From NCBI GenBank assembly GCA_041746255.1, contig JBGTHM010000095.1, positions 1 through 37,320 of the forward strand: a stretch of 37,320 nt of DNA, in the 5' to 3' direction. A program made the position numbers and the translations under genes. This document shows positions 11,452 through 33,202 of the stretch, one piece after another (the stretch's first letter is position 1; every line of letters begins with the position of its first letter). The notes below the pieces were generated by a model, which ran no database searches, was not told where the DNA came from, and was given only the letters and a program-made list of their open reading frames with translations. This DNA comes from Fibrobacteria bacterium. Lineage in GTDB: Bacteria; Fibrobacterota; Fibrobacteria; UBA11236.

Positions 11452-12330
11452 CTACCGAGTCCCCTTGGTTACGGGAAAAAGTTGGATGTTGACCTGGACG
11501 ATACGATCGCCCTTGCCGCTTTCGGCCTCGAAACCTCTCAATTCCTTCCGCATGAGCTGAACCTGCTTTTTCAGATTCGGCAAATCCGATTCCCGGATGG
11601 GAAAGCATACCGAGGAAATGTCCCGCTCCGGGCCGGGGATCTCATCCTGCGCCAGGGCTGCCAATTTCAGCAGCTGCGCATGATAGTCTTTCACCAGAAA
11701 GGATTTGACCTCGTCATCCGTCGTGATATCCGGATCGGCGGATTTGTACCCGTTGGCCGTTTTTTTGATCATCCCCGAGGCAACCAGCAATTCCAGGGAT
11801 TCCTGGACCTGTGAAGGTTCAACCATAGTCAGCAGCTGTTCCGCAATCCACCTGGGATTATTCCGGAAGCCTTTCAAATTCAACATCTCCCGTATGGCAA
11901 TAGTATACCAGTGCCGGAAGATTTGCAGTTGGGAAGATTCCAGTTTCCGGAATCGGGTTTTGCCCGGCAGCCGCATCAGCTTCTCATAGAAGAATTTCTT
12001 CTCATCGGATGTGCGTGCCTGGTTGAAATAGACCAGATTTTCAAAATATTGGGTTTGATTGGCGTCCAATTTCAAGGCGGCCACGATTTTGGTGAGGGAT
12101 TTCTGGCTAAGGTTGCGTTTACCCTCCATTAAATACTTCAACAAGCCATGACTGGGAAAATTCGCCTTTTTGGCAAAGAAGCGCAGTGAGAATTTGGGAT
12201 CGGCACGCTTATGGGCTGAATAATAGTCTTGCAGGAACTGGCGGTAATTGGTGTAATTCAGAAGGTTTGGGAATTTAATCGATAGCTTGGGCAGCGAGTC
12301 GGATTCGGTTTTGCGCGTCGAATTGGGCAT
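11452..12330 (-). CDS. TIGR02147 family protein (HTH + DUF4423)
   Basis: YTNYRQFLQDYY, FSLRFFAKKA, GKRNLS, YFENLVYFNQA, WYTIAIRE, ERDISS, QVNIQLFP; probable start ATG 12330. Confidence 0.88.
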   Translation of the reverse strand: MPNSTRKTESDSLPKLSIKFPNLLNYTNYRQFLQDYYSAHKRADPKFSLRFFAKKANFPSHGLLKYLMEGKRNLSQKSLTKIVAALKLDANQTQYFENLVYFNQARTSDEKKFFYEKLMRLPGKTRFRKLESSQLQIFRHWYTIAIREMLNLKGFRNNPRWIAEQLLTMVEPSQVQESLELLVASGMIKKTANGYKSADPDITTDDEVKSFLVKDYHAQLLKLAALAQDEIPGPERDISSVCFPIRESDLPNLKKQVQLMRKELRGFEAESGKGDRIVQVNIQLFPVTKGTR

Positions 12331-12525
12331 AAGTCTATTCCCGGTCAACCCTTCTCCTCGAACCTGCCGCATGAACTGGGTATAACATCGGATTCAATTA
12401 TAATTAAACCTCCCAAAATCCTTTCCAGCCGGATATTCACTCCCATGGCTCCGCTCCCATCCTGCCGGGCATCCTTCATTACAATAGGAAGATTTCGTGC
12501 AATAGCTTGGTACTCCCTTGTGAAG

Positions 12526-12597: not shown

Positions 12598-12846
12598 ATG
12601 AAAATTCCGATTCCCTGGAAAAAGTCACAGCGGTTGTTGAAAATGGCCTTGTTGGGGGCTAGTTTCGGCGCCGGAGTGTTCACCGGCTGCGCGATGGTAC
12701 CCCAGGTGGAACGCGAATATTTAAGCGACCCGGTCATGCTGCGTCAAGAGGACGCCCTCGAAGGCGCTTTGGAAGGCCATGATTTTCCCCGTCGCGAAGG
12801 TTCCGTCGGCGGAAGTTCGGGTTCCGGAGGTGGCTGCGGGTGCTGA
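12598..12846 (+). CDS. DUF4266 family lipoprotein
   Basis: FTGC lipobox, V..EREYL.DP.M, REGS.GG..GGGCGC C-terminus. Confidence 0.88.
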   Translation: MKIPIPWKKSQRLLKMALLGASFGAGVFTGCAMVPQVEREYLSDPVMLRQEDALEGALEGHDFPRREGSVGGSSGSGGGCGC

Positions 12847-14069
12847 AAAGTTTCCTCCATTCGGGCACCCGGGTTCGCCGTGCCGGACGGTTCCTAGGGA
12901 CGACTGTACTGGCACTATTACTGCAGACGCCCTCCCTTGTGCAGGCCGCCGGCGCGGGCAACACCTTGGCCTTCAAACACGAATATTTCTGGGATCGCAA
13001 TGGTGTATGGAATCACACTCCCGCATTTTCGTTCAATTGGGCTCTCTCCCGCAAATGGAGCTTCAATTGGGAGCAGGAAGTGGATGTCGTTACCGGTGCC
13101 TCACGGATGTTGGGTGCGGATAAAGTCGGCCCCTTTGGCGATCGTAAGTTGGACGCGGTTTCCGGAGCCTCCAAGGTGGAGACACGGCATTCCGAAAATC
13201 CCGGTATCGTCTATTCCCACAAAGGAGTCGTAGCCGGCGCCTCATTCTATCATAGCAGGGAGCCGGACTATTTTTCGTTGGCGCCGGCCGCTTCCCTCGC
13301 GTGGGATTTCAATGAACGCAATACTACCCTCGGGGTCAGCTGGGCCCAGTTTTTTGACGATTACCGCCCCTTCGGAGCCTATTCCGGCCAGGGCGGGAAA
13401 AAACGGATCCGTAGCCTGGGTGCTACTCTAGCTCAGTCCGTCACACCTTTGACCCTATTGGGCCTGACCGGTTCCTACATTTCCAGTTGGGGCTATCTGG
13501 GGCGTCCCTACAACCCACCCGTCGATATCAACGGCGTGATCATGATCGAGTCCGTGCCGGACCGCAGAACGGCCCTGGCCGTTGCCGGCCAAATTGTCCA
13601 GGGATACCATCTGGGAGAAAAGCTGGGCTCGATGAACCTGGACGTACGCCGCTTCCAGGATACCTGGGGAATCCGCTCCACCACCGCCGATGTCAAAATC
13701 AGCCAGTATTTCGCGGAAGGCGCTTTTTTCCGGATACGCGGCCGCTACTACAATCAAACCGGCGCGTTGTTCGCCAAGGAAGCCTACTCCGGGGCGGAGA
13801 AATACCATACGGCCGACATTCGGTTTTTCCCGTTTTCCTCTTGGCTGGTGGGCGCCAAGCTCTCCACCGCCTTCCCGGAATCGTGGGGGGAATTCATGCT
13901 CCTGCCCGACCGTTGGGATATCAAATACGACCATGTGATCCGGAATACCCGCGGTGATCCGGTAGGGTCCGTGGACGGCCGGCCCCCACGTGTACTCTAC
14001 CAATTGTATGGACCCGACGAGTATTACCTCCAGGGAACCCTGATGTTGGGACTAGTGTTCAACCTATAA
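12840..14069 (+). CDS. DUF3570 family outer-membrane protein with two flavinylation motifs
   Basis: DVVTGAS (13083-13103), DAVSGAS (13152-13172), SREPDY, FNERNTTL, GYLGRPY, PDRR, DTWGI; overlaps DUF4266. Confidence 0.85.
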   Translation: MLKSFLHSGTRVRRAGRFLGTTVLALLLQTPSLVQAAGAGNTLAFKHEYFWDRNGVWNHTPAFSFNWALSRKWSFNWEQEVDVVTGASRMLGADKVGPFGDRKLDAVSGASKVETRHSENPGIVYSHKGVVAGASFYHSREPDYFSLAPAASLAWDFNERNTTLGVSWAQFFDDYRPFGAYSGQGGKKRIRSLGATLAQSVTPLTLLGLTGSYISSWGYLGRPYNPPVDINGVIMIESVPDRRTALAVAGQIVQGYHLGEKLGSMNLDVRRFQDTWGIRSTTADVKISQYFAEGAFFRIRGRYYNQTGALFAKEAYSGAEKYHTADIRFFPFSSWLVGAKLSTAFPESWGEFMLLPDRWDIKYDHVIRNTRGDPVGSVDGRPPRVLYQLYGPDEYYLQGTLMLGLVFNL

Positions 14070-14084
14070 CGAAAGGACTGAAAA

Positions 14085-14615
14085 ATGATACCGGAAAAAT
14101 CCGTTAAAATTCGGGGAAAATCCTCGACGCTGAGAGCCTGCACAGTCCTGGTTCTGACCCTGTCCCTGTCCGTTGCTTCCATGCTGCGCGCGGAGAATTC
14201 CGAGACATTGCCGTCCTTCACCTTGCCGGATCTGGACGGCAAACAATGGAGCAGTGAAGATTTCAAAGGGAAGCCGGTGATATTCGACTTCTGGGCCACT
14301 TGGTGCACGGTATGCGAGGAGACCATTCCCAAGCTGTCCGAACTCAGCAAGAAGTACAAGAATAAGGGATTGACAGTCGTGGGAATCAGCGTGGACAAGG
14401 GCTCCCAACGGAAAATCCAGCGGACGGCCAAGAAGTGGGGCATCGACTATCTGGTTCTGCACGACAAGGAGAATACCCTGGGAAGTGTTTTCGGATTCAG
14501 CGGCATTCCTTCTGTGTATGTCTTTGATCGCAAAGGAAAACGCACCTTGGCCATGCCGGGATATGATCCGGATCACGATGAACAATTGGACGCCGCCGCC
14601 GAAAAGGCGCTTTAG
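14085..14615 (+). CDS. TlpA/ResA-like thioredoxin (disulfide reductase)
   Basis: PSFTLPDLDG, FWATWCTVC, VGISVD, GIPS..FDRKG. Confidence 0.92.
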   Translation: MIPEKSVKIRGKSSTLRACTVLVLTLSLSVASMLRAENSETLPSFTLPDLDGKQWSSEDFKGKPVIFDFWATWCTVCEETIPKLSELSKKYKNKGLTVVGISVDKGSQRKIQRTAKKWGIDYLVLHDKENTLGSVFGFSGIPSVYVFDRKGKRTLAMPGYDPDHDEQLDAAAEKAL

Positions 14616-14641
14616 GCCAAACCGGGAAACAAGTAAAACTA

Positions 14642-15346
14642 ATGAATATTTTCTCCCCCGAAAACTTATCGTCCTCACTTTCCACCGGATCCCTCGGGGT
14701 GATATTTCTCTGCTTCGTGGCGGGCGTGGCTTCCAGTTTCACACCGTGTATCTATCCTTTGGTACCGGTAACCATCAGCATTCTTGGATCCCGGCAAGTC
14801 GGTTCCAAGTTACGCGGGTTCTTTCTGACTATGGCCTATGTAGGCGGTATTTCGGTCACCTACGCGACCCTGGGATTCATCGCAGCTTTGACGGGTTCTC
14901 TTTTCGGATCCTTCAGCGCCAACCCCTGGGTGATGCTGGGAATCGCGGCTGTGGTGATGGCGCTGGCGCTGAACATGTTCGACGTATTTCAGATTCGTTT
15001 CCTCGGTCTGAATTTCTGCGGAGCGGGGGAGCATAAACCGGGCTTTTTCTCGAATTTCGGATACGGGCTCACCTTCGGGCTGGTGGCGTCGCCTTGCACC
15101 GCTCCTCCCCTGGCCGTGATACTTACCTGGGTGGGAACCACCCGCAGCATGGTGATGGGCCCGTTGTTGCTCTTCACCTTCGCCTTGGGCATGGGAAGCA
15201 TTCTCATTCTGCTTGGAACTTTTTCCTCCTTTTTGACGCGGATTCCCAAATCCGGAATGTGGATGGTCGCCATCAAGAAGGGCATGGGATATCTGATGGT
15301 CATCATGGCCGGCTATTTCGCCTTCAAGGCGGGGACCCAATGGTGA
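14642..15346 (+). CDS. DsbD/CcdA transmembrane electron transporter
   Basis: AGVASSFTPCIYP and ASPCTAP redox cysteines, ~6 TM helices, PKSGMWM. Confidence 0.92.
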   Translation: MNIFSPENLSSSLSTGSLGVIFLCFVAGVASSFTPCIYPLVPVTISILGSRQVGSKLRGFFLTMAYVGGISVTYATLGFIAALTGSLFGSFSANPWVMLGIAAVVMALALNMFDVFQIRFLGLNFCGAGEHKPGFFSNFGYGLTFGLVASPCTAPPLAVILTWVGTTRSMVMGPLLLFTFALGMGSILILLGTFSSFLTRIPKSGMWMVAIKKGMGYLMVIMAGYFAFKAGTQW

Positions 15347-16083
15347 AGTGGATTGCCGCCATCGCGGTGTTGTCGGGTTGTTTGGTCGGCTGCCTCAACC
15401 TGAAGCCGGATGAGGTCGAGTTGACTTCCCCATCCACCTCGAGGGTTTCGCTTTCGATACCGGATTGCGCGGGTTGCCATTCGTATCCGTTGAATGACGT
15501 CAACCATAATTTTCACCTGCGCTCTGCCAGTACCCGCGAAAGCATGGAAAGTATTTTCCCCTACGAAAGGAAGACCGGGGTCATGGTCTGCATGGATTGC
15601 CACTTCGGGTCCATGGCGCATCGCGGCTACACTTGGTACGACACGCTTTGGGGCACTGCGGACGACCTCCGCGTCACTGCCGACAAGCTGCCCGGCGATC
15701 CCATTTACCGCATCGATTCCATACCCGGATTCCTGCCCATGCCCGCAGGCGTGCCCGAAGCCGAAATAACCGCCGGAAAAGTCGACCATTTGATGGACAG
15801 CGCGGCCAGCATCGGGGCCGTTGTCGCTTGGCTGACGTCCCTGGACCATATGAACGGCGTGGTGGATGTGGAATTCTCCCCCAATATCGTTCTGGATACC
15901 TCCCTTTCTAAAATGGCATTCCAGCCCAGGGACCTCAGTTGTTCGGCCATTGAATGCCACAATGCGCCCAAGAAGGTATACCGATGGGCGTCCCATGAAT
16001 TGCGGCTTCCGGGGTGTCCCACACCCATACACACGCCTGAATTGGATTCGAGTTGCCGATATTCACCAAACCAGGAACCCTAA
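15340..16083 (+). CDS. c-type cytochrome lipoprotein (CxxCH x2 + CxxxxCH)
   Basis: ATG 15340 overlaps the ccdA stop; LVGC lipobox; CAGCH, CMDCH, HMNGVVDVEF...CSAIECH. Confidence 0.8.
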   Translation: MVKWIAAIAVLSGCLVGCLNLKPDEVELTSPSTSRVSLSIPDCAGCHSYPLNDVNHNFHLRSASTRESMESIFPYERKTGVMVCMDCHFGSMAHRGYTWYDTLWGTADDLRVTADKLPGDPIYRIDSIPGFLPMPAGVPEAEITAGKVDHLMDSAASIGAVVAWLTSLDHMNGVVDVEFSPNIVLDTSLSKMAFQPRDLSCSAIECHNAPKKVYRWASHELRLPGCPTPIHTPELDSSCRYSPNQEP

Positions 16084-16109
16084 TGTTCAGTCAATACAAG
16101 GAGATTTAC

Positions 16110-17228
16110 ATGCAGAAGGCCAGAGCTTTTTTCGTACCCTGCATCCACAAGAAAAACAGGACCGGATTGTGGTTTTTTTTGGGGGCGGCGGTTCTCGCGG
16201 GATTCTCCGCTTCGGGGTTGGATGCATCTTCCAATGCCGCCTTTGCCGGCGCCTATGCCGCAGCGGCCTGCGATGCCACCACCGGCGCCTCCTGCAAGGT
16301 GGTGGGCGTGAAAACCACTCTCAGTAGTGCTACTTTGACGTGGACGGAAAAGCACAGGAACGGCACCCGGAATTTCTGCTACGGAATCGGTTCCCCCAGC
16401 AAATGCGCAAAAGTAACCTCCCGCGCCCGCGGCACGAAAGAGCAGGTAGTCAATGGCCTCAATGCGAATACGAAATATTCCTATAAATTTTTCGGAATCT
16501 GGAAAGGAAAAACCAAATCGGTGGTGACGGGTACCTTTACCACGAACAGTTCCGCCTGCGGAACCAGCGTCATCTCCGTGGTGGAGGTAGGCGGGGTGGT
16601 CCTGTCCGTGAGCGGTGATTCGCTGGAAAACGCCTTGGTGACCCTGACCCGGAAATCGGACAACCAGGCGATTGCGGTGGATACCACCGATCTTTCCGGA
16701 GGCTATTTTTTCGAGGTGGATCCAGGTACCTATGAGATCACGGTTTCCCATCCTCCTTTCACTTCCCCCGCGCCCTATACCGCCACGGTAATCGCCAAAA
16801 AACCCCTGGATGTTCCCGACTTCGTGCTTTCCGGCGCTTTCCAAATCGGCGGAACCTTGGTATCGGAAAACATGCTTGACTCCCTTTCGGGAGCTACCAT
16901 CACGGCGGTTAACGCCGCGGAACCTTCCGAGACCTATACCCGCATCACCGATGACGAAGGACATTTCACTTTCGGAATGAAGCAGGGTGAGTATATGCTG
17001 ACCGCAACTTATAATGGAAAATCCATGGCCAGCCCCTTGCGTATATCCGTCACCAGGAGCATGGAATTGCCTCCCTTCTCACTGGCTTATGTGGCCGCCG
17101 TCCGGGGGCGGGAAGGCCGACTTTTCGGGTCCACCAACTCCCTGAAGCAAAAGCAATACGATGCCAAAGGAGTACGAAATCCCGATGCGCCGGTTTCGCG
17201 ATGGAGGAGGCTGTTTGGCGCGCCCTGA
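16110..17228 (+). CDS. Secreted protein: FN3-like domain + two carboxypeptidase-regulatory-like domains; candidate flavinylation substrate
   Basis: GGAG RBS before ATG 16110; signal peptide; CDATTGASC; VNGLNANTKYSY (FN3); TTDLSGGYFF..PGTYEI and TDDEGHFTF..GEYML repeats; tail YDAKGVR. Confidence 0.75.
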   Translation: MQKARAFFVPCIHKKNRTGLWFFLGAAVLAGFSASGLDASSNAAFAGAYAAAACDATTGASCKVVGVKTTLSSATLTWTEKHRNGTRNFCYGIGSPSKCAKVTSRARGTKEQVVNGLNANTKYSYKFFGIWKGKTKSVVTGTFTTNSSACGTSVISVVEVGGVVLSVSGDSLENALVTLTRKSDNQAIAVDTTDLSGGYFFEVDPGTYEITVSHPPFTSPAPYTATVIAKKPLDVPDFVLSGAFQIGGTLVSENMLDSLSGATITAVNAAEPSETYTRITDDEGHFTFGMKQGEYMLTATYNGKSMASPLRISVTRSMELPPFSLAYVAAVRGREGRLFGSTNSLKQKQYDAKGVRNPDAPVSRWRRLFGAP

Positions 17229-18270
17229 ATGGATCCGTTTCGCCCCGCTTCTGGGCCTGGCCTTTGTCCAGTGCCGGGAAGTGGTGCGAACCCATAATTG
17301 GTTCGCCATGGATACCAATATGTCCGTTTCCCTTTACGGCGAATCCTCGCTATCGGACGAGGAGGTTTTTGCAAGGCTTGAAGCGGAGACGGAGCGTCTC
17401 GGCAATCTTTTCAGCGACTACTCTTTGGCGTCCCCGGTGGCGAAAATGATCGGTAGCTTGGGAGATACGCTGGCCGTGGATCCGGAGATTTACCCGGTCC
17501 TGGCAGCCGCTCTGGAGGCGGGCGAATCCGCCCAGGGTGTCTTTGACATCACATTGCATGATTTGAAGGCGCTGTGGGGAATCGGGTCCGGAGAAAATAA
17601 TCGTGTACCGGATTCATCGGAAATCGATTCCGTGATGGCGGGAAACCCCGTTTACCGGCAGGCTTTCGAAGGCTTTTCCTGGCAACCGCCTTTGCTGCTA
17701 TTGCCGGATAACCGGGCCGTGCTGCTGCGCGAAAATTGCCGCCTGGACCTGGGGGCTATCGCCAAGGGGCATATCGTGGATCGTCTTCATGCGATATTGG
17801 ACTCTCTCGGCCTTTCCGATCATATTATCCAGGCGGGGGGCGATATCCGCCTGGGCGGCAAGAAAAGTTCCGGTCCCTGGATCCTGGGAATCCGCCACCC
17901 CCGGTCCGCCGATTCATTGAGCGGTAGGATAAGCCTTTCCACCGCCATGGCGGTATCCACGTCCGGGGATTACGAGCGTTTCTTCGAAGCGAATGGCGAG
18001 CGCTACCACCATATCCTGGATCCACGCACCGGTCGCCCGGCCCGCGGGGTTTCCTCCGTCACCGTCCTGGCCGGCTCCGGCATCGTGGCCGATGTCCTTT
18101 CCACTTCCCTGTTTGTGCTGGGACCGGACAAAGGCGCCGAATTGGCTCGGCGATACCAGGCCTCCGCCGTCTGGTTCAAAGCGCTTCCGGAGGGAATTTG
18201 CGCCATCGCCATGCCGGAGATCAGCGACTGGTTACAATTGGGGGGAGTCGCTTCCTGTCCCTCGATGTGA
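17215..18270 (+). CDS. apbE: FAD:protein FMN transferase
   Basis: AMDT, GVFDIT, LDLGAIAKG, AGGDI, VSTSGDYER, YHHILDPRTG, ADVLST; lipobox; TTG 17215 follows GGAGGAGG. Confidence 0.95.
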   Translation: MARPEWIRFAPLLGLAFVQCREVVRTHNWFAMDTNMSVSLYGESSLSDEEVFARLEAETERLGNLFSDYSLASPVAKMIGSLGDTLAVDPEIYPVLAAALEAGESAQGVFDITLHDLKALWGIGSGENNRVPDSSEIDSVMAGNPVYRQAFEGFSWQPPLLLLPDNRAVLLRENCRLDLGAIAKGHIVDRLHAILDSLGLSDHIIQAGGDIRLGGKKSSGPWILGIRHPRSADSLSGRISLSTAMAVSTSGDYERFFEANGERYHHILDPRTGRPARGVSSVTVLAGSGIVADVLSTSLFVLGPDKGAELARRYQASAVWFKALPEGICAIAMPEISDWLQLGGVASCPSM

Positions 18271-18291
18271 GGGCGGGATTGCGGAAGACCC

Positions 18292-18672
18292 ATGTTTCGC
18301 CCGGGCGGTTGGTTTCGGCCTATGGATGCTTTCGTGATTCTCGTGGCGGCATCCGCTTCTTGTTGGGGTTTTCTCGGTTATAAGCTGGAGGGCGACGCCA
18401 AGGCCATGGTCTATTTGGACGGTGTCAAGCATGCCGTGTTCGACCTTGCCGATAAACGGCATGAGGCTGAAGTTTCCACCCATATCGGCCCTATGCGGTT
18501 GGAGGTTGGCGATGGGTCGGTGCGCATCCTCAAATCACCCTGCCCCAATCATCTTTGTATGAAGTCGGGAGCGGCCCGGTATGTGCATTCGGAAATCATC
18601 TGCGTTCCCGCCCGGCTGCTGATTGTCGTCGAAGGTAAGGGAATCGGGGAACTCGATGTCATTACTTATTGA
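18292..18672 (+). CDS. NusG domain II-containing protein (DUF1312)
   Basis: N-terminal TM, SPCPNHLCMKSG, IICVPARL. Confidence 0.88.
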   Translation: MFRPGGWFRPMDAFVILVAASASCWGFLGYKLEGDAKAMVYLDGVKHAVFDLADKRHEAEVSTHIGPMRLEVGDGSVRILKSPCPNHLCMKSGAARYVHSEIICVPARLLIVVEGKGIGELDVITY

Positions 18673-19939
18673 ACCGGCTGAAATGGCGCCGGCTGAAGGT
18701 GTGCGGCTTGAACCCGCGCGCCTCCACCGCAAGCAGCCCCGAAGGGTTTTGCGGCGCCACCAATACCCGTCCCGGCTTCCCCGTTCCGAGCCGGCGGCTT
18801 CCCATGCCGTCGGCCTTACCGCCGGAGTGTTCGCCCTGGCCCTGGTGGCCGCCTCCAGTCTCCAGATCATGGAAATTCTGATTCCCCGTTTCCCCTTGTT
18901 CCCCTGGATGCGACTGGGATTATCCTATATCATAATCCTGCCGTTCTTGCTGCGATATGGCGGCCGGGCGGCATTCGCATTGCTGGTGGCCCGAAATCTG
19001 ATCACCCTGCTCTATGGTGGCCAGCCGTTCTCGACCTTTCTTATCGGTACGGGGGCGGGAGCCGTCGCCTTGCTATCCATCGGCCCACTGTTGCGCGCGG
19101 CATACTCCCGGGACCTGCTGGGGATAACCGGCATCAGCGTCTGTCTCGCGTCGGTTTTCAATCTTTCCCAACTCACCCTGGTCAATCTGGCTTTGATCCG
19201 GCATGCCGGATTTTTTGTGCAATTGGGTCCTATCCTCGCATGGTCCTTGTTTTCGGGCGTCTTGGTAGCTGCCTTGATCCGTCTCTCCGAAAAGGAGATT
19301 CCGGCCTTTCTCACCGTTGCGCCCAAAACCGCGTCTGCCACGCCGCAAGCCAACCCCCTCAAGGAGGGAAATGTGTGGATTTTCCTGGTTGGGTTGATGG
19401 GAATGGCGGGAATTCTCCTGGTTCCCTCGGCAAGCCTTCAGGTTACGGCACTGCTGGTGCTGGCTCTGGTTTCGCGGGACAGGGGCAAAGCACTATTGGT
19501 GGCCTGGCCTTTTCTCTTTTATCTGGCCTGGCTGCATCTTTTTCATACCTCCGGTGAGTATCTCATCGGGGACTGGGTGACGCGCGAAGGACTGCGGGAT
19601 TTCGTCTGTCATGCCGCGCGTCTTGGAAATCTCATTCTGCTGGGTCGATGGGTGTCGCGCCGGTTTCCCTGGCAATGGACGCGCCATTCGCAAAGCGGTT
19701 CAACAGGCCGGCAATCCCTCTATGTCCAAGGCTTCCTGCTGGCGCTTCCGTTGTTGCCGAATCTTTTCAAGCCAAGCCTGGAGCTGGGAAGGATTGTGGT
19801 CCGGAAATTATGGACCGGGAACCACACGGATGCCATGTCCCCGGCTTTTTCCGCTTGGCGCAATCTGCTGGAGGTTCCCGCCGCGCCCTCAGTAGAGGCA
19901 AAGACGGCCGACGTTCATTCCGACCGCAACCATTTATAG
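18656..19939 (+). CDS. Gx transporter / heptaprenyl diphosphate synthase component I family domain fused to an EcfT-like membrane domain
   Basis: LQIMEILIP..PWMRLGLS, GITGISV..SVFNLSQL; C-terminal LHLFHTSGEYL...VTREGL....ARL resembles an EcfT N-terminus. Confidence 0.7.
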   Translation: MSLLIEPAEMAPAEGVRLEPARLHRKQPRRVLRRHQYPSRLPRSEPAASHAVGLTAGVFALALVAASSLQIMEILIPRFPLFPWMRLGLSYIIILPFLLRYGGRAAFALLVARNLITLLYGGQPFSTFLIGTGAGAVALLSIGPLLRAAYSRDLLGITGISVCLASVFNLSQLTLVNLALIRHAGFFVQLGPILAWSLFSGVLVAALIRLSEKEIPAFLTVAPKTASATPQANPLKEGNVWIFLVGLMGMAGILLVPSASLQVTALLVLALVSRDRGKALLVAWPFLFYLAWLHLFHTSGEYLIGDWVTREGLRDFVCHAARLGNLILLGRWVSRRFPWQWTRHSQSGSTGRQSLYVQGFLLALPLLPNLFKPSLELGRIVVRKLWTGNHTDAMSPAFSAWRNLLEVPAAPSVEAKTADVHSDRNHL

Positions 19940-20608: not shown

Positions 20609-21510
20609 ATGGTTGAAGATGGCGCGTTCACCCCGGTGGATGAGGATGAAAGACTTTCCGTACCCAGGGGATTCCGGAAAATGCTGGAAATCCCCTTCTT
20701 GGAGGCATTGCAGGGAAGACGGTCCCGCCGCTTTTTTACAGGTGCCGAAATTCCGGACGGAGTCTTCGCCTATAAATCCAAAATTCTTCCCGAGCCGCTG
20801 TCGGAACTGGAGCGCCTCCTGGTGGTGGGCGCCTGCGGTGGCGGCATCGGGTGATGGTAACGGCCCTCCCGATTAGGAGCAGGTAATCGGAGCGTTACAG
20901 GGTAACATCTGCGAATTACAACATGGACGCTTGCATATTCCTGCCGCGCCCCCGTTTATGGAGCCCCACAATACCTGGGCTGTCAACCGCCCGGGTACCC
21001 TGCTGATCATTCCCGTGGGAGACCTGGCCCATAACCTTCCTGGAACAATTGTCGCTGGCCGAGGTGAGGGCGCATCTGGACACCAGTTGTTATGGTGGTA
21101 TGCTGATGCTGCGGACCATCGGACTGGGATTCCACTTCGATAGTGGCGATCGATGACCCTATCCCAATGTCACTGGTCTGGAGGGGGTGATGGAAGCCTT
21201 CTGCCCGCCACATTATGCCACTATGCGCGAGGCGGTGGAAGCGGCGCATGTCCGCAAATTCGGCGCGGGAGGGCCGTTCCATCCGGAGACGCCCGGCCCC
21301 TGGAAAAATTCCGCCCGCGTACGCTCGGCCGCCCAGGTCCATAACGAGGAATTCAAGGAATGCGTCGCCCCGCAGGCGCAGTATGTTTTCGATACCTTCG
21401 GAAAAGTTCCGGGCAAGGTGCCTTCGATATTCGTCATGCAATAGCTCCAGGCCCATCATCTCGATTTGGAATTCTACGATAAATTCTTCGAGCCGGGCGC
21501 CTTTGCGTTC
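20609..21510 (+). pseudogene. Fragmented nitroreductase-like conserved protein
   Basis: Protein-like pieces in different frames: LEALQGRRSRRF..GAEIPDG..PLSELE; HNTWAVNRPGTLLIIPVGD; FCPPHY...KFGAGGPF; LQAHHLDLEFYDKFF; stops and deletions. Confidence 0.6.
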
Positions 21511-21516
21511 GTCGCA

Positions 21517-21669
21517 GAATCGTTTTGTAAGCTAAACGATTTTTCCCCGGCCCGTCCAATCCCTCCAAAACCGGAATGGGAAAGAGCGATACATTCTCAT
21601 ATCGAAAAATTGTTTAAATATGTTTGTATAGTAACGTCAGTAAAAAAATTAGTCATCGAATATCCATTT
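21517..21669 (+). repeat. Dispersed non-coding element, copy 1
   Basis: Aligns by eye at roughly 85% identity over 153 nt with 25280-25432. Confidence 0.9.
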
Positions 21670-26688: not shown

Positions 26689-28143
26689 ATGCGATTGATT
26701 TCTCCATTCAACTTGTTGCTCATTTCTGCTACGGCCATGCTGGCGCATGCCCAAGAAGACGTGCGATTGAAACTCAACGGCTCCGGGTGGTTACAGTTCG
26801 GGCGCGTGATGCACAGTAGCGATACGCTGGACAGGACCTATAATTATAACGACAACTGGTTCCAGAGCTCCGGCGCCCAATTCACGGTATTGGCCGATAT
26901 CGACCAAAACTGGGAGGGAGCCATGGGTCTGGGCGGATTCCAGGTGCACAATGGACAGGGGACCGAATTCTCCGCCCTCACCACCAGCCTGGGATTTTCT
27001 CCTTTTATCACCGAAGCGCGCATCACCTATTTTCTGGACGACAAGGAAAGTTCCCCCCTGGAGCTCACTTTCGGCCTCTTTCCCTACCATTACAACCGCG
27101 ATGTCAAAAACCTCGGGCAATACCTTTTTCGCGGCCCGGTCTACCCGGGATTCCTGATATCGGAATTCGAATCCTCGTCCATTGATACCACAGTCGCAAA
27201 CATGCTGGGCATGCAAGCCCGCCACCGTATCGGCAATTTCACCCACGATCTGATTCTCCGCAGCGAAACCGAACTGCCACCCGTTTTCGACTTCTCCCTG
27301 GGATATTTGGCCCAAATCGATTTCGGTGGAATTTTGGAGTTGGGCATGGGCGTAAACTTCCATCGCCTGATGCCCATCAAAGGCGACCTGACCAATTTGC
27401 GGGACCGCGATATTTTCCCCGTCCGCAACCCGAATGCCGGGGCCGGCCCCTACGACGGCTCCTATGCCCATGTCTCCACCGATACCTCCATCATTCCGGC
27501 AGCCCAGCGCGCGACGCCGGACGACAGCCTCCAGGTAATCCGCGATACCACCTTCCTTTCCCACCAGGGCGCCAAGCTCATGGGCCGCATGGCCTTCCAT
27601 CCCGGGCGGCTGCTGGAATCGGACCTGATTGGCCCCAATGACTTCAAGCTGTACACCGAAATCGGCGTTATCGGCGTCCGTAATTACAAAGGTGTGTATC
27701 CGGATATAAAACAGCGCATACCCGTCCTATTCGGGTTCAATATTCCCACCTTCCGCCTTTTGGATGAGGCCGCGCTGGAAGTGGAATGGTATGGCGCCCC
27801 CTACCGCAACGATTATTACCGGCTGGTCAATGAAACCTCGCCGGTTCCGGTAAGCAATTCGGGCCTCGGCCGGGAAGCCGACGCTTTTGGAAGGCTGGAC
27901 GGAGACAGTACCGTGGTCTTCGGCGATCCTTTCGACGTCGAGAATATGCGCAAGGACAACTGGAAGTGGTCTCTCTATTTGGCCAAGACCTTTCAAAACC
28001 ATGTGCGTTTCAGCATGCAAGTGGCCAATGATCATTTTCGCCCCAATACCCTCGCAACCGATGCGAAATCCGCCCAATTCAATACGGCAACCACAACCTT
28101 GAAGGACTGGAATCTGATGTTCCGGCTGGGTTTTCTTTTTTGA
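26689..28143 (+). CDS. Outer-membrane protein, paralog 1 of 3
   Basis: Signal peptide; KNLGQYLFRGPVYPG, DNWKWSL, ANDHFR; C-terminal LGFLF. Confidence 0.8.
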   Translation: MRLISPFNLLLISATAMLAHAQEDVRLKLNGSGWLQFGRVMHSSDTLDRTYNYNDNWFQSSGAQFTVLADIDQNWEGAMGLGGFQVHNGQGTEFSALTTSLGFSPFITEARITYFLDDKESSPLELTFGLFPYHYNRDVKNLGQYLFRGPVYPGFLISEFESSSIDTTVANMLGMQARHRIGNFTHDLILRSETELPPVFDFSLGYLAQIDFGGILELGMGVNFHRLMPIKGDLTNLRDRDIFPVRNPNAGAGPYDGSYAHVSTDTSIIPAAQRATPDDSLQVIRDTTFLSHQGAKLMGRMAFHPGRLLESDLIGPNDFKLYTEIGVIGVRNYKGVYPDIKQRIPVLFGFNIPTFRLLDEAALEVEWYGAPYRNDYYRLVNETSPVPVSNSGLGREADAFGRLDGDSTVVFGDPFDVENMRKDNWKWSLYLAKTFQNHVRFSMQVANDHFRPNTLATDAKSAQFNTATTTLKDWNLMFRLGFLF

Positions 28144-28145
28144 TT

Positions 28146-29600
28146 ATGGAACCCGGTATGGAGAAAAGGCTTTATTCCATGCAATCACCTGCAATGAAAT
28201 CCGAATTACCCCTTTGCAAGCACCGGAGGATGGGCCGCCGGACCGCTGCGGCTCTCGCCGCGGCCGCTCTGATGTTTCCTCTGCATGCCGGCGCCGATAC
28301 CTTCGACAACCTCGACGTCAAATTTCGCGGCGCAGGCTGGTTCAAGTCCGGCATGATCATGCAAAGCTCCGATACCGTAACCGGATCCGTGCAGAACAAC
28401 TATAACGGAAATTGGTTGCAGGACGCCGGCGCCCTTTTGACAGGCGTCGTAAACCTCAGCGAAAATTTCGAAGGCGCCTTCGGAGTGGGCGCAATCCAGA
28501 AGCATGCCGCCCAGGGGGTTCTCGACCAGGCCCGATTCGTGAAATTGGGCATGAACATCTTCCTCACCCAATCCCGCTTCACCTGGTTTCCTGAAGGCAA
28601 GCAGGATTTCAATCACAAGGTGACGCTCGGATGGTTCCCCTACAAATATGATCACAATATCAAGAACCTGGGGTTGTATCTCATTCGTGGACCGGTATAT
28701 CCGGGCATTCTCTTCTCCGGCTTCGAGTCGAAAGAGATGCTGAACACCGCGAATATGCTGGGCGGCCACGTCCAGAATAAATTCGGGCCTTACACGCAGG
28801 ACCTGCTGCTCAGCAGCGAAGTGGACTTGAAACCGCTTTTCGATTTTTCCTTCCTCTATGTCGGCACTCTGAAATTGGGAAGCGCTTTCGAAATCGGAGG
28901 CGGGGCGAATTTCTACCATTACCTCCCCGTCCGGCCCGGTTTGACCAGCCCTTCGGAGGAAAAGGGATTCAACCCGAACGTAAAGGAGCAGGGGAATTTC
29001 CAGGAACACCCCAACGATTACCTGTACGCCGTCCCCTTGGATTCCGCCGGCACCCAATTTCAATGGGTAACGCATAAGGGCATTAAAGTCATGGGGCGCT
29101 TCGCGCTGGACCCGAAGGCCCTTTTCGACGGTGCGGGATCTTTGGGACCGAATGATTTGAAGCTGTATGGCGAGGTCGGCATCCTGGGAACCAAGAACTA
29201 TCCCGGCGTTTACGACAAGGTTGCCGAAAGGATGCCCATGATGCTGGGCTTCAATTTGCCGGCCTTCGGCCTGCTGGATAACCTCTCCTTCGAGGTGGAA
29301 TATTACAATTCGGAAGTCGTGCCGGATTATCGGAAAATCGTGGAACGATCATCGGCCATCCCGCAAACGCCCTATATCAATCGCGGTCCGTCTAATCCCG
29401 AACCTTACCGGGTCCATGCCGATGATTGGAAATGGTCCTTGTATTTCAACAAGGTCATGGCCGGCCATGTCAAGCTCAGCGGCCAATTGGCAAACGATCA
29501 CTTCCGAACCGGGGGAACGGCGGGTTTTCCGTCTTACGAAGAAGCAATGACCGCCTTGTATGATTGGTACTGGATGTTAAAACTGAGCTACTTCTTTTAA
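28146..29600 (+). CDS. Outer-membrane protein, paralog 2 of 3 (start uncertain, 28146-28230)
   Basis: KNLGLYLIRGPVYPG, DDWKWSL, ANDHFR; C-terminal LSYFF. Confidence 0.8.
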   Translation: MEPGMEKRLYSMQSPAMKSELPLCKHRRMGRRTAAALAAAALMFPLHAGADTFDNLDVKFRGAGWFKSGMIMQSSDTVTGSVQNNYNGNWLQDAGALLTGVVNLSENFEGAFGVGAIQKHAAQGVLDQARFVKLGMNIFLTQSRFTWFPEGKQDFNHKVTLGWFPYKYDHNIKNLGLYLIRGPVYPGILFSGFESKEMLNTANMLGGHVQNKFGPYTQDLLLSSEVDLKPLFDFSFLYVGTLKLGSAFEIGGGANFYHYLPVRPGLTSPSEEKGFNPNVKEQGNFQEHPNDYLYAVPLDSAGTQFQWVTHKGIKVMGRFALDPKALFDGAGSLGPNDLKLYGEVGILGTKNYPGVYDKVAERMPMMLGFNLPAFGLLDNLSFEVEYYNSEVVPDYRKIVERSSAIPQTPYINRGPSNPEPYRVHADDWKWSLYFNKVMAGHVKLSGQLANDHFRTGGTAGFPSYEEAMTALYDWYWMLKLSYFF

Positions 29601-29635
29601 ATGATTACCGCAAAAAAAGGCCTGGTTGGAATCAG

Positions 29636-31120
29636 ATGGATATGACTTACCAAAATGCGAACAATACGAGTTTTGCCGGATTGATCCTCGCGGCATGGAT
29701 CCGAAAAGGCGCCAGGCTCCTGGTCCTGCCGGCCCTAGGGCTGGCCTGGCTGGCCTGCCCGTCCTCGCCGGCGGCCGCGGAAAACCTTGAGGTGCGCGTA
29801 AATGGCCTCGGGTATGTCCAAGCCGGGCGCATCATGCACTCCTCCGATTCCATCGACTACAATTACAACGGCAACTGGTTCCAGAAGGCGGCGGCCCAGA
29901 TTACCGCGCATGCGCAAATCAACAAGAACCTGGAAGGAGCGTTGGGAATAGGCGCCAGGCAGGCGCACAAGGCCCAGGAGCGCCTCGATGCCGCCCGGCG
30001 CCTGCAGGTAGGCGTGGAACCTTATATCTCCGAGGCCCGGTTTACCTATACCCGCGGCGACATTGAAGCTCCTTCACTGCAAATCACCTTCGGGTATTTC
30101 CCTTACAATTACAACCCTTCCGTGCGAAACCTGGGACTGTACCTGCTGCGGGGAACGGTCTATCCCGGCTTCCTTTTTTCCGGGTTCGAAACCGATGAAA
30201 CCATGCCGATAGCCAATACTCTGGGCGCCCGCCTGCATGGCGCCACCGGGCCCTTTCAGCACGATGTCATCCTTTCGAGCCAGACCAATGTGCGTCCCCT
30301 GTTCGATTATTCCCTCGCCTATATCGGGCGCTATGCCAACTCCGTTTTCGAAATCGGCGCCGGGGTCAATTTCTACCGCCTGATTCCCATCGTGCCCGAA
30401 TTGACCACTCCTCGCGATACCACGGTTTTCACCGAAAGGTATTCGGATAGTGAGATCTTGAGCAAATACGACCGCAACCATCTCTATATCGAAAATACGC
30501 CTACGGGGCCCGATACGACCCGGTTCACGCTCAAAGGCACGAAGCTGGCCTCTTTCATGTCTTTGGACTTGAAGGCCTTGACGGGCCAGGGCGCCATGGG
30601 CGACAAGGATTTGAAACTGTATTCCGAAGTCGCTCTCATCGGGGTAAAGAGTTACAAGGGGATATATGACGACATTCTCCAGCGGATACCGGTAATGTTG
30701 GGATTCAATATTCCCGCCTTCAAGCTGCTGGACCACCTTTCCCTGGAAGTGGAATGGTATGGCGCCCCATATAGGAACGATTACCAGAAGCTCGAAAATG
30801 AATATTCTCCCATCCCGGTTTCGAATCAGAACTTGCAAAGGGTTCCCGAGACCGATTCCACCGGGCAATTGGTTATCAGCCGCGGGCCTGGAGAATCCTA
30901 TCCCTATGCCGACCCCTTTGATGTTGAAAATATGGTCCAGGACAATTGGAAATGGTCCCTGCACGGCGCTAAAACCATCAAAAACCAGATCCGCATCAGC
31001 GCGCAACTGGCCAACGACCATTTCCGCACTGGAGGAAGCACCAATTCGGATACCTTTGAATCGGCATTCAGCACCCTGAAGGACTGGTATTGGATGACGA
31101 AAATCAGCTATTTCTTTTGA
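29636..31120 (+). CDS. Outer-membrane protein, paralog 3 of 3
   Basis: RNLGLYLLRGTVYPG, DNWKWSL, ANDHFR; C-terminal ISYFF. Confidence 0.8.
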   Translation: MDMTYQNANNTSFAGLILAAWIRKGARLLVLPALGLAWLACPSSPAAAENLEVRVNGLGYVQAGRIMHSSDSIDYNYNGNWFQKAAAQITAHAQINKNLEGALGIGARQAHKAQERLDAARRLQVGVEPYISEARFTYTRGDIEAPSLQITFGYFPYNYNPSVRNLGLYLLRGTVYPGFLFSGFETDETMPIANTLGARLHGATGPFQHDVILSSQTNVRPLFDYSLAYIGRYANSVFEIGAGVNFYRLIPIVPELTTPRDTTVFTERYSDSEILSKYDRNHLYIENTPTGPDTTRFTLKGTKLASFMSLDLKALTGQGAMGDKDLKLYSEVALIGVKSYKGIYDDILQRIPVMLGFNIPAFKLLDHLSLEVEWYGAPYRNDYQKLENEYSPIPVSNQNLQRVPETDSTGQLVISRGPGESYPYADPFDVENMVQDNWKWSLHGAKTIKNQIRISAQLANDHFRTGGSTNSDTFESAFSTLKDWYWMTKISYFF

Positions 31121-31260
31121 TTACCGAATAGGTCATCTGCAATGAGTTGCTTGGATGCCAGGCAGTCCCCGCTCCGCACCTTTGCTTTGCGTCCTATAGC
31201 GACAATAAGCCGCCTCTGGACCCGAAGTCGCTTCAGAAGATAGGGGATGTGAGAAAAGTT

Positions 31261-31276
31261 GTTTATTCCACAAAAC
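31261..31276 (-). promoter_or_regulatory. GTTT-N8-AAAC motif, putative operator
   Basis: Reverse strand reads GTTTTGTGGAATAAAC, matching the repeat core GTTTTGTGAGCTAAAC. Confidence 0.45.
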
Positions 31277-31381
31277 AGGTTCTTGCGTGGACGCAATGCG
31301 ACCGATCGCCTTCAGCATTAGATTGGAGTGGAATTGATTATGAGTTTCCCTCTGTAGATCCCTTGTCCCACGAGGTTGATT

Positions 31382-33202
31382 ATGGCACGAATGGACATCC
31401 ATTGGCTGGTGTTGCTGGGCCTAATGGTCCCAACCGCGGTGTCTCCGGTGAACGGGCAACCCGTTGGTTGGAAAGGCCCAGGCAATTTCGATTATACGAA
31501 GCATTTGGCCAAAACACCCTCCCAGGCTGCGGGCCTTCCGGACATGCCCCCGGGATTCGAGGCATCCCTGGCGCATCCCAACAACTTCAATCCGCTTGTG
31601 AGCGGATTGGACTTCCTATCCGATGGGCGCATGGTGTTATTGCATTCCTCCTACACGGATAAAGGAAGCATCATTTATCTGGTTGACGGCGCCGCCGGTC
31701 CCAGAGAGCAAATGAAATTCACGAAAATTGCCGGCGACATCCTGGGATCATTCGGAGTAGAGGTTCTGGATAATGAAATCTATTACTTGGCGCAGGATGG
31801 AATTTGGAAACTGGTGAAAAAATCGGGCACACCGGAAACATGGGAACAAAAGTTCATCGCCAAGTACATCGTCCCCGGCATGGAAGGAGGGCACAATAAC
31901 GGGTCCCGCTATCCCATGTTCAATCTGGTGCATGCCAAGGGAAGCCTCTACTTCGGCAACGGCGCCTATAAAAATTTCAACGTTCCCGGCCGGAACGAGG
32001 GTTATGGTCTCAAGCTTGACCTGGCTACCGGTGAGCAGGAAATTCTGGGCAGGGGCCTCCGCATGCCCAATGGGATGGGAGCCAATGCCGCCGGAGACGT
32101 TTTTTTCACGGATAACCAGGGGGAATACCGGCCCGGCAGCCCGGTATACCATCTTGTGAAGGGACGGCATTATGGCATGGCGGCTCCGAGAGGCGTTACC
32201 GGAAATCAGGGCGGGACTATGACGGATATGTTTCCGCTACCGACGGACGAGCCCCTCTATTCTCCGGCGATATGGGTGCCTTTCGGGAGCGAAAGCCGCT
32301 CGCTCACCAACATGCTGTACCTGGAGCACACTGCCTTCCAAGGGCAATTCCTGGCCGGCGACAATGCCAGGGGCGCGGTGCACCGGATTCAATTGGAAAA
32401 AGTCAAAGGTGAATACCAGGGCGCGTATTTCCAGTTCAGCGGCGTATTGGAAGCCGGCGTTCAAAGTCTTACCACGGGCCCGGACGGCACGATATACGGA
32501 GGGGCGCTCGGCCGGGGAACAGGCGGACATAGCTGGCTGGGGCGAACAGCAGGCTTGATGAAGTGGAAGCCCACCGGAGGCCCACTGCAATCCATCAAAC
32601 GCGTTTCTTCACAGCGGGACGGCTTCGATATGGAATTCACCGAAGCGCTGTCGGCCCCTGCCGTGGCGCCGGAAAATTTCTGGGTCCTGTCCTATTACTA
32701 TAAACCCACCCCTGCTTATGGTGGTCCTCCCCTGGATATACGCAACCATAAAATCACCGAGTTGCAAACTTCCGCGGACCGCCGGACCCTTGCCATCTCT
32801 GTTGACGGTCTGGAAGCGAATCGCATCTACCGCATCATGTTGGCCCCCGGCATCAAAACGGCGGACGGGCTTCCCTTGTTCACGTTGAATGCCTGGTATA
32901 CTTTGAATCAAATCAATGAAGCCGGTCCCCTGACCACATCGATGATTTCACCGGTGCGCGCCGTGGAAAACTTTTCCAAAGCCATTTTCCAACGCAGGGA
33001 CGGAGTCCTGCGTATCCGCGTGCCGGATGTGGGCGCTTACACCCTGAAGCTGGTGGATTTGCGCGGAATTTTGGTATCGACTGTTTCCGGCGCGGGCGCG
33101 GGAAGCCATGTTTTGCAGCTCGGAACGAGTTCCCCCCTGGTTGCGGTCTTGAACACGCCTTCGGGAATTTTCTCCCAGATTGTTCCTCCGGAAGAACTGT
33201 AA
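31382..33202 (+). CDS. Secreted beta-propeller protein (glucose/sorbosone dehydrogenase-like) + Ig-like domain + sorting-like tail
   Basis: GAGG RBS; signal peptide; GLDFLSDGRM, GLRMPNGMG, FFTDNQGEY, FQGQFLAGD, GEYQGA, GPDGTIY, YYYKPTPAYGGP; tail LVDLRG. Confidence 0.75.
   Translation: MARMDIHWLVLLGLMVPTAVSPVNGQPVGWKGPGNFDYTKHLAKTPSQAAGLPDMPPGFEASLAHPNNFNPLVSGLDFLSDGRMVLLHSSYTDKGSIIYLVDGAAGPREQMKFTKIAGDILGSFGVEVLDNEIYYLAQDGIWKLVKKSGTPETWEQKFIAKYIVPGMEGGHNNGSRYPMFNLVHAKGSLYFGNGAYKNFNVPGRNEGYGLKLDLATGEQEILGRGLRMPNGMGANAAGDVFFTDNQGEYRPGSPVYHLVKGRHYGMAAPRGVTGNQGGTMTDMFPLPTDEPLYSPAIWVPFGSESRSLTNMLYLEHTAFQGQFLAGDNARGAVHRIQLEKVKGEYQGAYFQFSGVLEAGVQSLTTGPDGTIYGGALGRGTGGHSWLGRTAGLMKWKPTGGPLQSIKRVSSQRDGFDMEFTEALSAPAVAPENFWVLSYYYKPTPAYGGPPLDIRNHKITELQTSADRRTLAISVDGLEANRIYRIMLAPGIKTADGLPLFTLNAWYTLNQINEAGPLTTSMISPVRAVENFSKAIFQRRDGVLRIRVPDVGAYTLKLVDLRGILVSTVSGAGAGSHVLQLGTSSPLVAVLNTPSGIFSQIVPPEEL

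Follow-up and report, generated by a model that had tools for sequence, protein, structure and literature searches.

We analysed a 37,320-nt stretch of DNA (hereafter the window) from Fibrobacteria bacterium (UBA11236; assembly GCA_041746255.1, contig JBGTHM010000095.1), in which nine genes at positions 12598..19939 form a presumed operon. A preliminary description of this locus had read it as a trans-envelope electron-transfer operon combining flavin, heme and thiol carriers, and its layout was confirmed: the nine open reading frames (ORFs) are intact, all lie on the + strand, span ~7.3 kb without internal stops and, taking the likely starts, overlap or are separated by 15–26 nt. This tight packing suggests co-transcription; a promoter and terminator scan was uninformative (1 promoter-like match against 4.2 expected, 11 terminator-like matches against 11.6). 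Pfam also agreed with the gene identities given in that description, eight genes scoring above cut-off and the cytochrome being recognised by its motifs. Gene 1 (12598..12846) encodes a DUF4266 lipoprotein (49 bits) of 52 amino acids in its mature form, with a lipobox Cys31 and a C-terminal CxC in the end G-C-G-C. Gene 2 (12840..14069) encodes a DUF3570 protein (89 bits), predicted to be a 16-strand outer-membrane beta-barrel with two motifs for ApbE, the transferase that attaches flavin mononucleotide (FMN) from flavin adenine dinucleotide (FAD) to proteins. It is followed by a TlpA/ResA-like periplasmic thioredoxin with a W-C-x-x-C motif (gene 3, 14085..14615; AhpC-TSA 88 bits), a DsbD transmembrane protein of CcdA size with two membrane Cys (gene 4, 14642..15346; DsbD_TM 145 bits) and a c-type cytochrome lipoprotein with three putative heme sites (gene 5, 15340..16083). 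Gene 6 (16083..17228; the start may be 16110) encodes a secreted protein with a flavinylation-type tag, an FN3-like domain, two CarboxypepD_reg domains (72 bits) and a short basic tail. The last three genes encode ApbE (gene 7, 17161..18270, start possibly at 17185; 240 bits), the NusG domain II protein EetA (gene 8, 18292..18672; NusG_II 66 bits; named after data set S1 of PMC9973259) and a putative FAD exporter that joins EetB, similar to the S component of energy-coupling factor (ECF) transporters, to an EcfT-like half (gene 9, 18656..19939, its ORF being open from 18623; Hpre_diP_synt_I PF07456 67 bits). Together, these nine genes probably carry electrons to the cell surface.

By gene content, genes 1–4 and 7 are the published 'DsbD system', a flavinylation cluster of ApbE, DUF3570, a thioredoxin-like protein, DUF4266 and DsbD (Meheust et al. 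2021, PMC8238504). All five genes are common to both, as are the two DUF3570 motifs and the C-terminal CxC of DUF4266. In that work, flavinylation of DUF3570 at both motifs was shown for a Chlorobium protein, thioredoxin electrons are carried outward by DsbD-family proteins, and DUF3570 systems are described as widespread, with their function open (PMC8238504). In the window, ApbE, DUF3570, DUF4266 and DsbD all exceed their Pfam cut-offs within one cluster; the thioredoxin scores as AhpC-TSA/Redoxin, and PF13899 is not among its matches. The putative redox residues are conserved: the WCxxC of gene 3 is kept in 26/26 close homologs, both Pro-Cys motifs of gene 4 in 17/17 DsbD homologs, and C50-G-C52 of DUF4266 is invariant in 30/30 homologs. 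As previously described, gene 2 bears two flavinylation motifs, DVVTGAS and DAVSGAS; at least two strict motifs are present in 30 of 33 close DUF3570 homologs, and six of the 33 have three. Genome-wide, the strict motif matches only 9 of 22,031 six-frame ORFs, and four of these nine are three DUF3570 proteins and gene 6.

The DUF3570 model, built from 34 sequences, is a 16-strand barrel (predicted local distance difference test, pLDDT, 87; predicted template modelling score, pTM, 0.84) whose Foldseek matches are outer-membrane porins. Model and matches uphold the outer-membrane location proposed in the preliminary description, which is thus predicted from structure. Both motifs flank a single loop, between strands 3 and 4. 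A general rule of barrel topology fixes the side on which a loop lies, and by this rule the flavin loop would face outward. Literature searches for DUF3570 and DUF4266, including word searches of the accessible text of PMC11334425 and its preprint, found no statement of a barrel fold. DUF3570 variants with a longer loop and a third motif-like word occur in relatives (L123, L132, L139, L141). The host genome itself encodes a second DUF3570 locus (L096, 9570-13672, G000:C34), with TlpA, DUF4266 and a one-motif DUF3570 but no ApbE, which also encodes a lipoprotein bearing two CxxCH and, in its middle, a hydrazine-synthase-alpha domain. A third, divergent DUF3570 (L097, 9499-12392, G000:C100) has a His-rich loop and lies beside a 560-amino-acid protein without Pfam match.

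The cytochrome lipoprotein falls below every family cut-off (Cytochrome_C7 19 bits, TIGR01904 17 bits), and a sequence search of the PDB returned nothing under E 0.01. Its two CxxCH and one CxxxxCH motifs, from which heme binding is suggested, are conserved with little or no exception across 29 aligned homologs, as are three further, distal His and the lipobox Cys; all 29 show the same weak TIGR01904 match at E≤0.1. Of 69 genome matches to the cytochrome, 67 were retained after two partial ones were dropped, and 56 of these have a DUF3570 gene within 5 kb on the same strand; as 29 of the matches had been used to build the profile, the unbiased linkage is 27/38, some of the remainder lying near contig ends. 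We also examined the linkage from the side of the barrel. The 90 DUF3570 matches were split at a score gap into 57 close and 33 distant ones (two of the 33 being fragments), and the cytochrome lies within 5 kb of 51/57 close DUF3570 genes compared to 0/33 distant ones. The close set forms one branch with support 95/96. The triheme lipoprotein therefore marks this DUF3570 barrel subclade and is the regular operon member that it had been taken for. When its docking on the barrel and DUF4266 was predicted as three chains, the cytochrome scored 0.45, the best of three controls scoring 0.00, with a contact agreement of at least 59% and a partner pLDDT of at least 67. In a calibration that this job does not resemble, 116 of 157 solved complexes and 2 of 215 mismatches passed the mark; scores of 0.60 or less comprise only 18 of the 157 solved complexes and both passing mismatches. 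The complex prediction called for in the preliminary description thus separated the cytochrome from the controls, but in a score range shared with mismatches, and gives weak support for docking. Tandem cytochrome-DUF4266-DUF3570 units or doubled cytochromes occur in L131, L141, L101 and L135, and a single genome can hold as many as six cytochromes and six barrels. The host genome also encodes two related exported proteins, each with eight CxxCH (G000:C83:48239-50590 and G000:C21:5243-7597), that are possible cytochrome partners.

Gene 6 begins with a signal peptide (read by eye), followed by DATTGAS and the FN3-like domain; most of its homologs have 170–200 amino acids and no CarboxypepD_reg. 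The sequence D-x-x-[ST]-G-A-[ST] is the minimal ApbE motif, its seven residues being sufficient and best placed at termini, and a G-to-A variant is still ~50% modified (PMC12052999). Gene 6 itself is strict for this motif. All 38 distinct members retain the tag D and the final S/T, and 19 have the strict motif; an additional homolog, at L259, reads D-A-V-N-G-A-S. In two members (L220, L221) the tag follows an evident end of the signal peptide, again read by eye. The family was defined as 34 matches at E≤7e-15 out of 102; of the 68 weaker FN3 matches, 66 set in directly after the tag position, mostly in long proteins of a family in which ApbE occurs in 8/95 genomes. A barrel or cytochrome gene is found no farther than 5 kb from 26 of the 34 members, in agreement with the earlier view of this motif-bearing secreted protein as a regular member, and ApbE is present in 24 of the 25 genomes that carry the family. 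The conserved tag, this linkage and the presence of ApbE in carrier genomes make the gene 6 family a good candidate for a new family of ApbE substrates. The tag is not a mere signal-peptide cleavage site, since its Asp is invariant and several members have an earlier evident cleavage site; a second possible flavin site in gene 6, DSLSGAT, was rejected as unconserved. Copies retaining the tag are also found outside the operon (L220, L221, L222, L225, L209, L129), one of them as D-A-V-A-G-A-S. With respect to location, basic tails have been proposed as a secretion signal (PMC6851124). The gene 6 tail has an isoelectric point above 9 in 29/36 members, an x-D-x-x-G-[RK]-like word is present in 24/28 tails (the pattern having been derived from those same tails), similar short basic tails occur on other secreted proteins, and the host genome encodes SprA together with 70 matches to TIGR04183, the type IX C-terminal domain. 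Export of gene 6 beyond the outer membrane is putative. A search of representative proteins with the gene 6 domain was swamped by large repeat proteins and gave no family range; atlas matches for gene 6 (0.89, FN3) and for the cytochrome (0.85) are leads only.

EetB exports FAD for ApbE, and EetA/EetB form a published FAD-export module (Rivera-Lugo et al. 2023, PMC9973259). By analogy, genes 8 and 9 are therefore a cofactor supply cassette and not an electron-transfer module. PF07456 is present in 25/25 gene 9 homologs. In the gene 9 model (pLDDT 89), residues 5–175 match RibU (Z 11.6, root-mean-square deviation 3.5, 165 aligned), a match backed by Pfam and by 13 further S-component rows. Residues 192–372 match EcfT (5d3m_D; Z 8.5, root-mean-square deviation 7.2, 181 aligned) and CbiQ (Z 6.3); such Z values are common among helical proteins, and the T match is weaker than the S match. 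The T-like half has no Pfam or CbiQ match, its hhalign probability is 1.7%, and the terminal x-R-G motif of 15 CbiQ/EcfT proteins of the class has no conserved counterpart in it. The 'EcfT-like' assignment of the preliminary description thus has some backing from structure but none from family match or motif. The structural matches came from a wide search; with the whole model, Foldseek gave nothing at E≤0.001, a PDB sequence search gave nothing, and tblastn gave no plasmid match. An ATP-binding cassette ATPase is found in only 1 of 32 gene 9 loci and a CbiQ-family match in only 4 of 31 relatives of the family. FAD binding and export by gene 9 are putative, and the exporter may be ATPase-free or differently energised. 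Compared to the EetB/FmnA/EcfAA' exporter (PMC9973259), the cassette shares the PF07456 S component, the eetA and apbE neighbours and the S-T fusion; it differs in its diderm host, in a T-like half lacking the CbiQ match and x-R-G, in that no ECF ATPase was found and in its linkage to DUF3570 and DsbD, which is not listed in the accessible parts of that paper, no DUF3570 being seen in the accessible part of its data set S1. A second ApbE gene of the host (L095, 9488-10543, G000:C5) has no known substrate family adjacent to it.

We then asked how far the nine genes stay together in Fibrobacteria, the group that we surveyed. The gene 9 fusion was found in 37 of 151 genomes of the class; 32 of 40 matches in relatives were taken as loci, 21 of which, with 5 kb or more of upstream sequence, are informative. 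The full set of nine is found in 8/21 (L063, L069, L071, L076, L081, L082, L083, L090), which span two families and three genera, and also in L156 and the metagenome locus L259. The DUF3570 cluster is present in part in another 5/21, lies whole or in part beside EetAB in 13/21 and is wholly missing in 8/21. The set is thus co-conserved, as the preliminary description had asked; since kin are not independent, these counts reflect inheritance and are not a statistical test. The genome tallies and linkage counts include an unpublished genome, G194 (one cytochrome, two DUF3570 and two EetB rows), on which none of the nine-gene loci or alignments rests. In the usual gene order the cytochrome comes first; in the window, L125 and L126 it follows DsbD. 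More distant EetA-EetB pairs lack the DUF3570 cluster.

Electron transfer of the DsbD type is a low-flux route. We propose, as a reading that falls a little short of an even chance, that the operon builds and runs a conduit through which a low flux of electrons moves outward across the outer membrane. To build it, the EetB/T-like fusion with EetA would export FAD to the periplasm, where ApbE would place FMN on two serines of DUF3570 and on the N-terminal tag of gene 6, before their insertion or export. To run it, the CcdA-type DsbD would take electrons from cytoplasmic thioredoxin across the inner membrane and hand them to TlpA, from which they would reach the CxC of DUF4266 and the triheme lipoprotein, both sitting on the DUF3570 barrel. 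The FMN loop of the barrel would pass them outward, and the tagged FN3 protein would carry flavin at the surface or in the periplasm. The conduit would probably serve surface reduction for assimilation or maintenance, e.g., of Fe(III) or Cu(II) for uptake, rather than respiration; the host genome has four heme-copper oxidase-family matches, and the host therefore need not respire through this path. We infer the flavinylation of these proteins, their complex, the order and direction of electron flow, the location of gene 6 and the acceptor; the evidence for the architecture is far stronger than that for any particular acceptor. As a surface acceptor, a lytic polysaccharide monooxygenase was rejected, no LPMO_10 match being found in the genome.

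Several observations weigh against this conduit. The flavin loop is poorly modelled (pLDDT below 50 at residues 56–79), and its outward side follows from the general topology rule. Gene 6 is absent from the TIGR04183 matches of the genome and from the NCBIfam hits, and its tail, compared with a tail profile built from the genome, does not score above shuffled sequences, the scores overlapping. No ECF ATPase is above cut-off in the genome (best TIGR04520 161 bits against a cut-off of 315; no TIGR01166 match at E≤1e-40), which is rated 100% complete in 130 contigs and could hold a divergent one. Four genomes carrying seven to nine of the genes (G104, G201, G205, G208) have no COX1 match; lifestyle therefore gives no clear pointer to function, and a strict link to oxygen respiration was rejected. 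The joining of two module types, claimed in the preliminary description, recurs in relatives, but the ApbE-EetA-EetB cassette also stands apart, without DUF3570 in 8/21 genome loci, and of 8 close metagenome loci that extend 9 kb upstream, 6 lack the DUF3570 cluster and 2 have it. Many cytochrome-DUF4266-DUF3570 trios have no adjacent DsbD, and the cytochrome link is therefore tighter than the DsbD link. The best NCBIfam match of gene 3 is ResA, below cut-off, and the genome carries a cytochrome c assembly protein of fused size; on both counts, DsbD and TlpA could be maturation factors. Finally, the Pfam scan of the operon proteins found no metal (iron or copper) transporter, no TonB part and no quinol oxidoreductase; the first of these absences counts against the proposed use.

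Some of these observations point to other explanations. DsbD and TlpA may be heme-attachment factors of the CcdA/ResA type, leaving cytochrome, DUF4266 and DUF3570 as a small respiratory-linked porin-cytochrome conduit, which would run outward to acceptors or inward from donors outside the cell. The ResA match, the CcdA size of DsbD, the stability of the trio, which is the most stable unit, and the weak docking score all agree with this. However, published clusters of thioredoxin, DUF4266, DsbD and DUF3570 are described without a cytochrome in the accessible parts of PMC8238504, clusters without a cytochrome occur here as well (L066, L093, L140), the genome has two other DsbD-type proteins, and the operon lacks a quinol oxidoreductase; we regard this explanation as rather unlikely. 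The barrel might instead be a redox-coupled uptake channel, through which a metal ion or complex (probably) would pass and be reduced or released by the loop flavins, with no electron exit and with gene 6 in the periplasm. Its porin size, the overlap of the gene 6 tail scores with shuffles and the presence of the iron transporter VIT1 in 25 published DUF3570 clusters (PMC8238504) would fit, but the operon has neither an inner-membrane metal transporter nor a TonB part, and three hemes and a second flavoprotein would exceed what simple gating needs; we consider such a channel improbable. We give similarly little credence to a clustering of convenience, in which ApbE-EetA-EetB is a housekeeping cassette beside its clients, and DUF3570 and gene 6 are separate substrates that share no pathway. 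EetA-EetB does occur across the phylum without DUF3570, and 8/34 gene 6 family members have neither a barrel nor a cytochrome gene within 5 kb. However, the other members do, and where ApbE and EetAB lie elsewhere (L068, L065, L075, L123, L128), gene 6 is still found with the barrel or cytochrome. This explanation accounts well for the cassette, but for neither the cytochrome nor gene 6.

Porin-cytochrome conduits such as Shewanella MtrAB use a larger outer-membrane barrel that holds a membrane-spanning decaheme cytochrome. The proposed conduit would share with them an outer-membrane barrel, here by model, and a multiheme c-type partner, here with weak docking support, but would differ in its 16 strands, in three heme motifs instead of ten, in the presumed covalent FMN on the barrel and in its thiol relay. 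That it represents a new conduit class, in which barrel FMN replaces the heme wire, the triheme protein and thiol relay feed it, a tagged FN3 protein accepts and an ATPase-free S-T fusion exports the cofactor, we consider doubtful. The Listeria-type locus for extracellular electron transfer includes Ndh2 and demethylmenaquinone genes; none was found among the operon proteins and scanned neighbours, no wider genome search having been made. The host genome also lacks a match to FMN_bind PF04205 (PplA-type), and the NusG-II and Gx genes, which the preliminary description had taken as a second electron-transfer module from that locus, correspond instead to the known FAD exporter. Relative to the 'DsbD system', the operon adds the triheme lipoprotein, the tagged FN3 protein and EetA/EetB; the accessible parts of PMC8238504 mention neither a barrel fold nor a cytochrome or exporter for that system. 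Known ApbE substrates are FMN_bind, DUF2271, DUF3570, Flavodoxin_4 and FMN_red (PMC8238504, PMC11334425); gene 6 shares their motif, is exported and lies beside apbE, but carries the motif as a short N-terminal leader ahead of an FN3-like domain, a setting that the accessible parts of these papers do not describe.

Each half of the operon is therefore published, the DsbD system in PMC8238504 and FAD export by EetA/EetB in PMC9973259, and the earlier statement that the combination is undescribed applies to their union. Neither this union nor the triheme partner, the tagged FN3 family or the apparently ATPase-less fusion was found in literature searches, though subscription papers and large supplements could list them. 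Within 7.3 kb, the operon combines flavin supply, transferase and barrel with candidate electron donors and acceptors, so that the function of DUF3570 becomes testable by heterologous expression. Gene 6 represents a new candidate family of ApbE substrates, naturally tagged at one terminus, and gene 9 a candidate FAD exporter of a diderm host, perhaps able to work without the usual ATPases. Should the conduit prove real, environmental Fibrobacteria would have a surface redox route not found in a 95-genome family that mostly lacks it (1/95 genomes).

Elsewhere in the window, positions 20609-21535 hold short ORFs, spread over several frames and both strands, that resemble fragments of one degraded gene; two pieces that were scanned had no Pfam or NCBIfam match, and no plasmid match was found. 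Farther downstream, 26689-33202 (+) holds four or five long co-oriented ORFs of 484–608 amino acids without Pfam match. Upstream of the operon and divergent from it lies a TIGR02147/DUF4423 gene (11452..12372, − strand; TIGR02147 280 bits), a possible regulator whose membership is uncertain. A homolog of this gene flanks many of the related loci, in either orientation, and the host genome encodes 22 paralogs.

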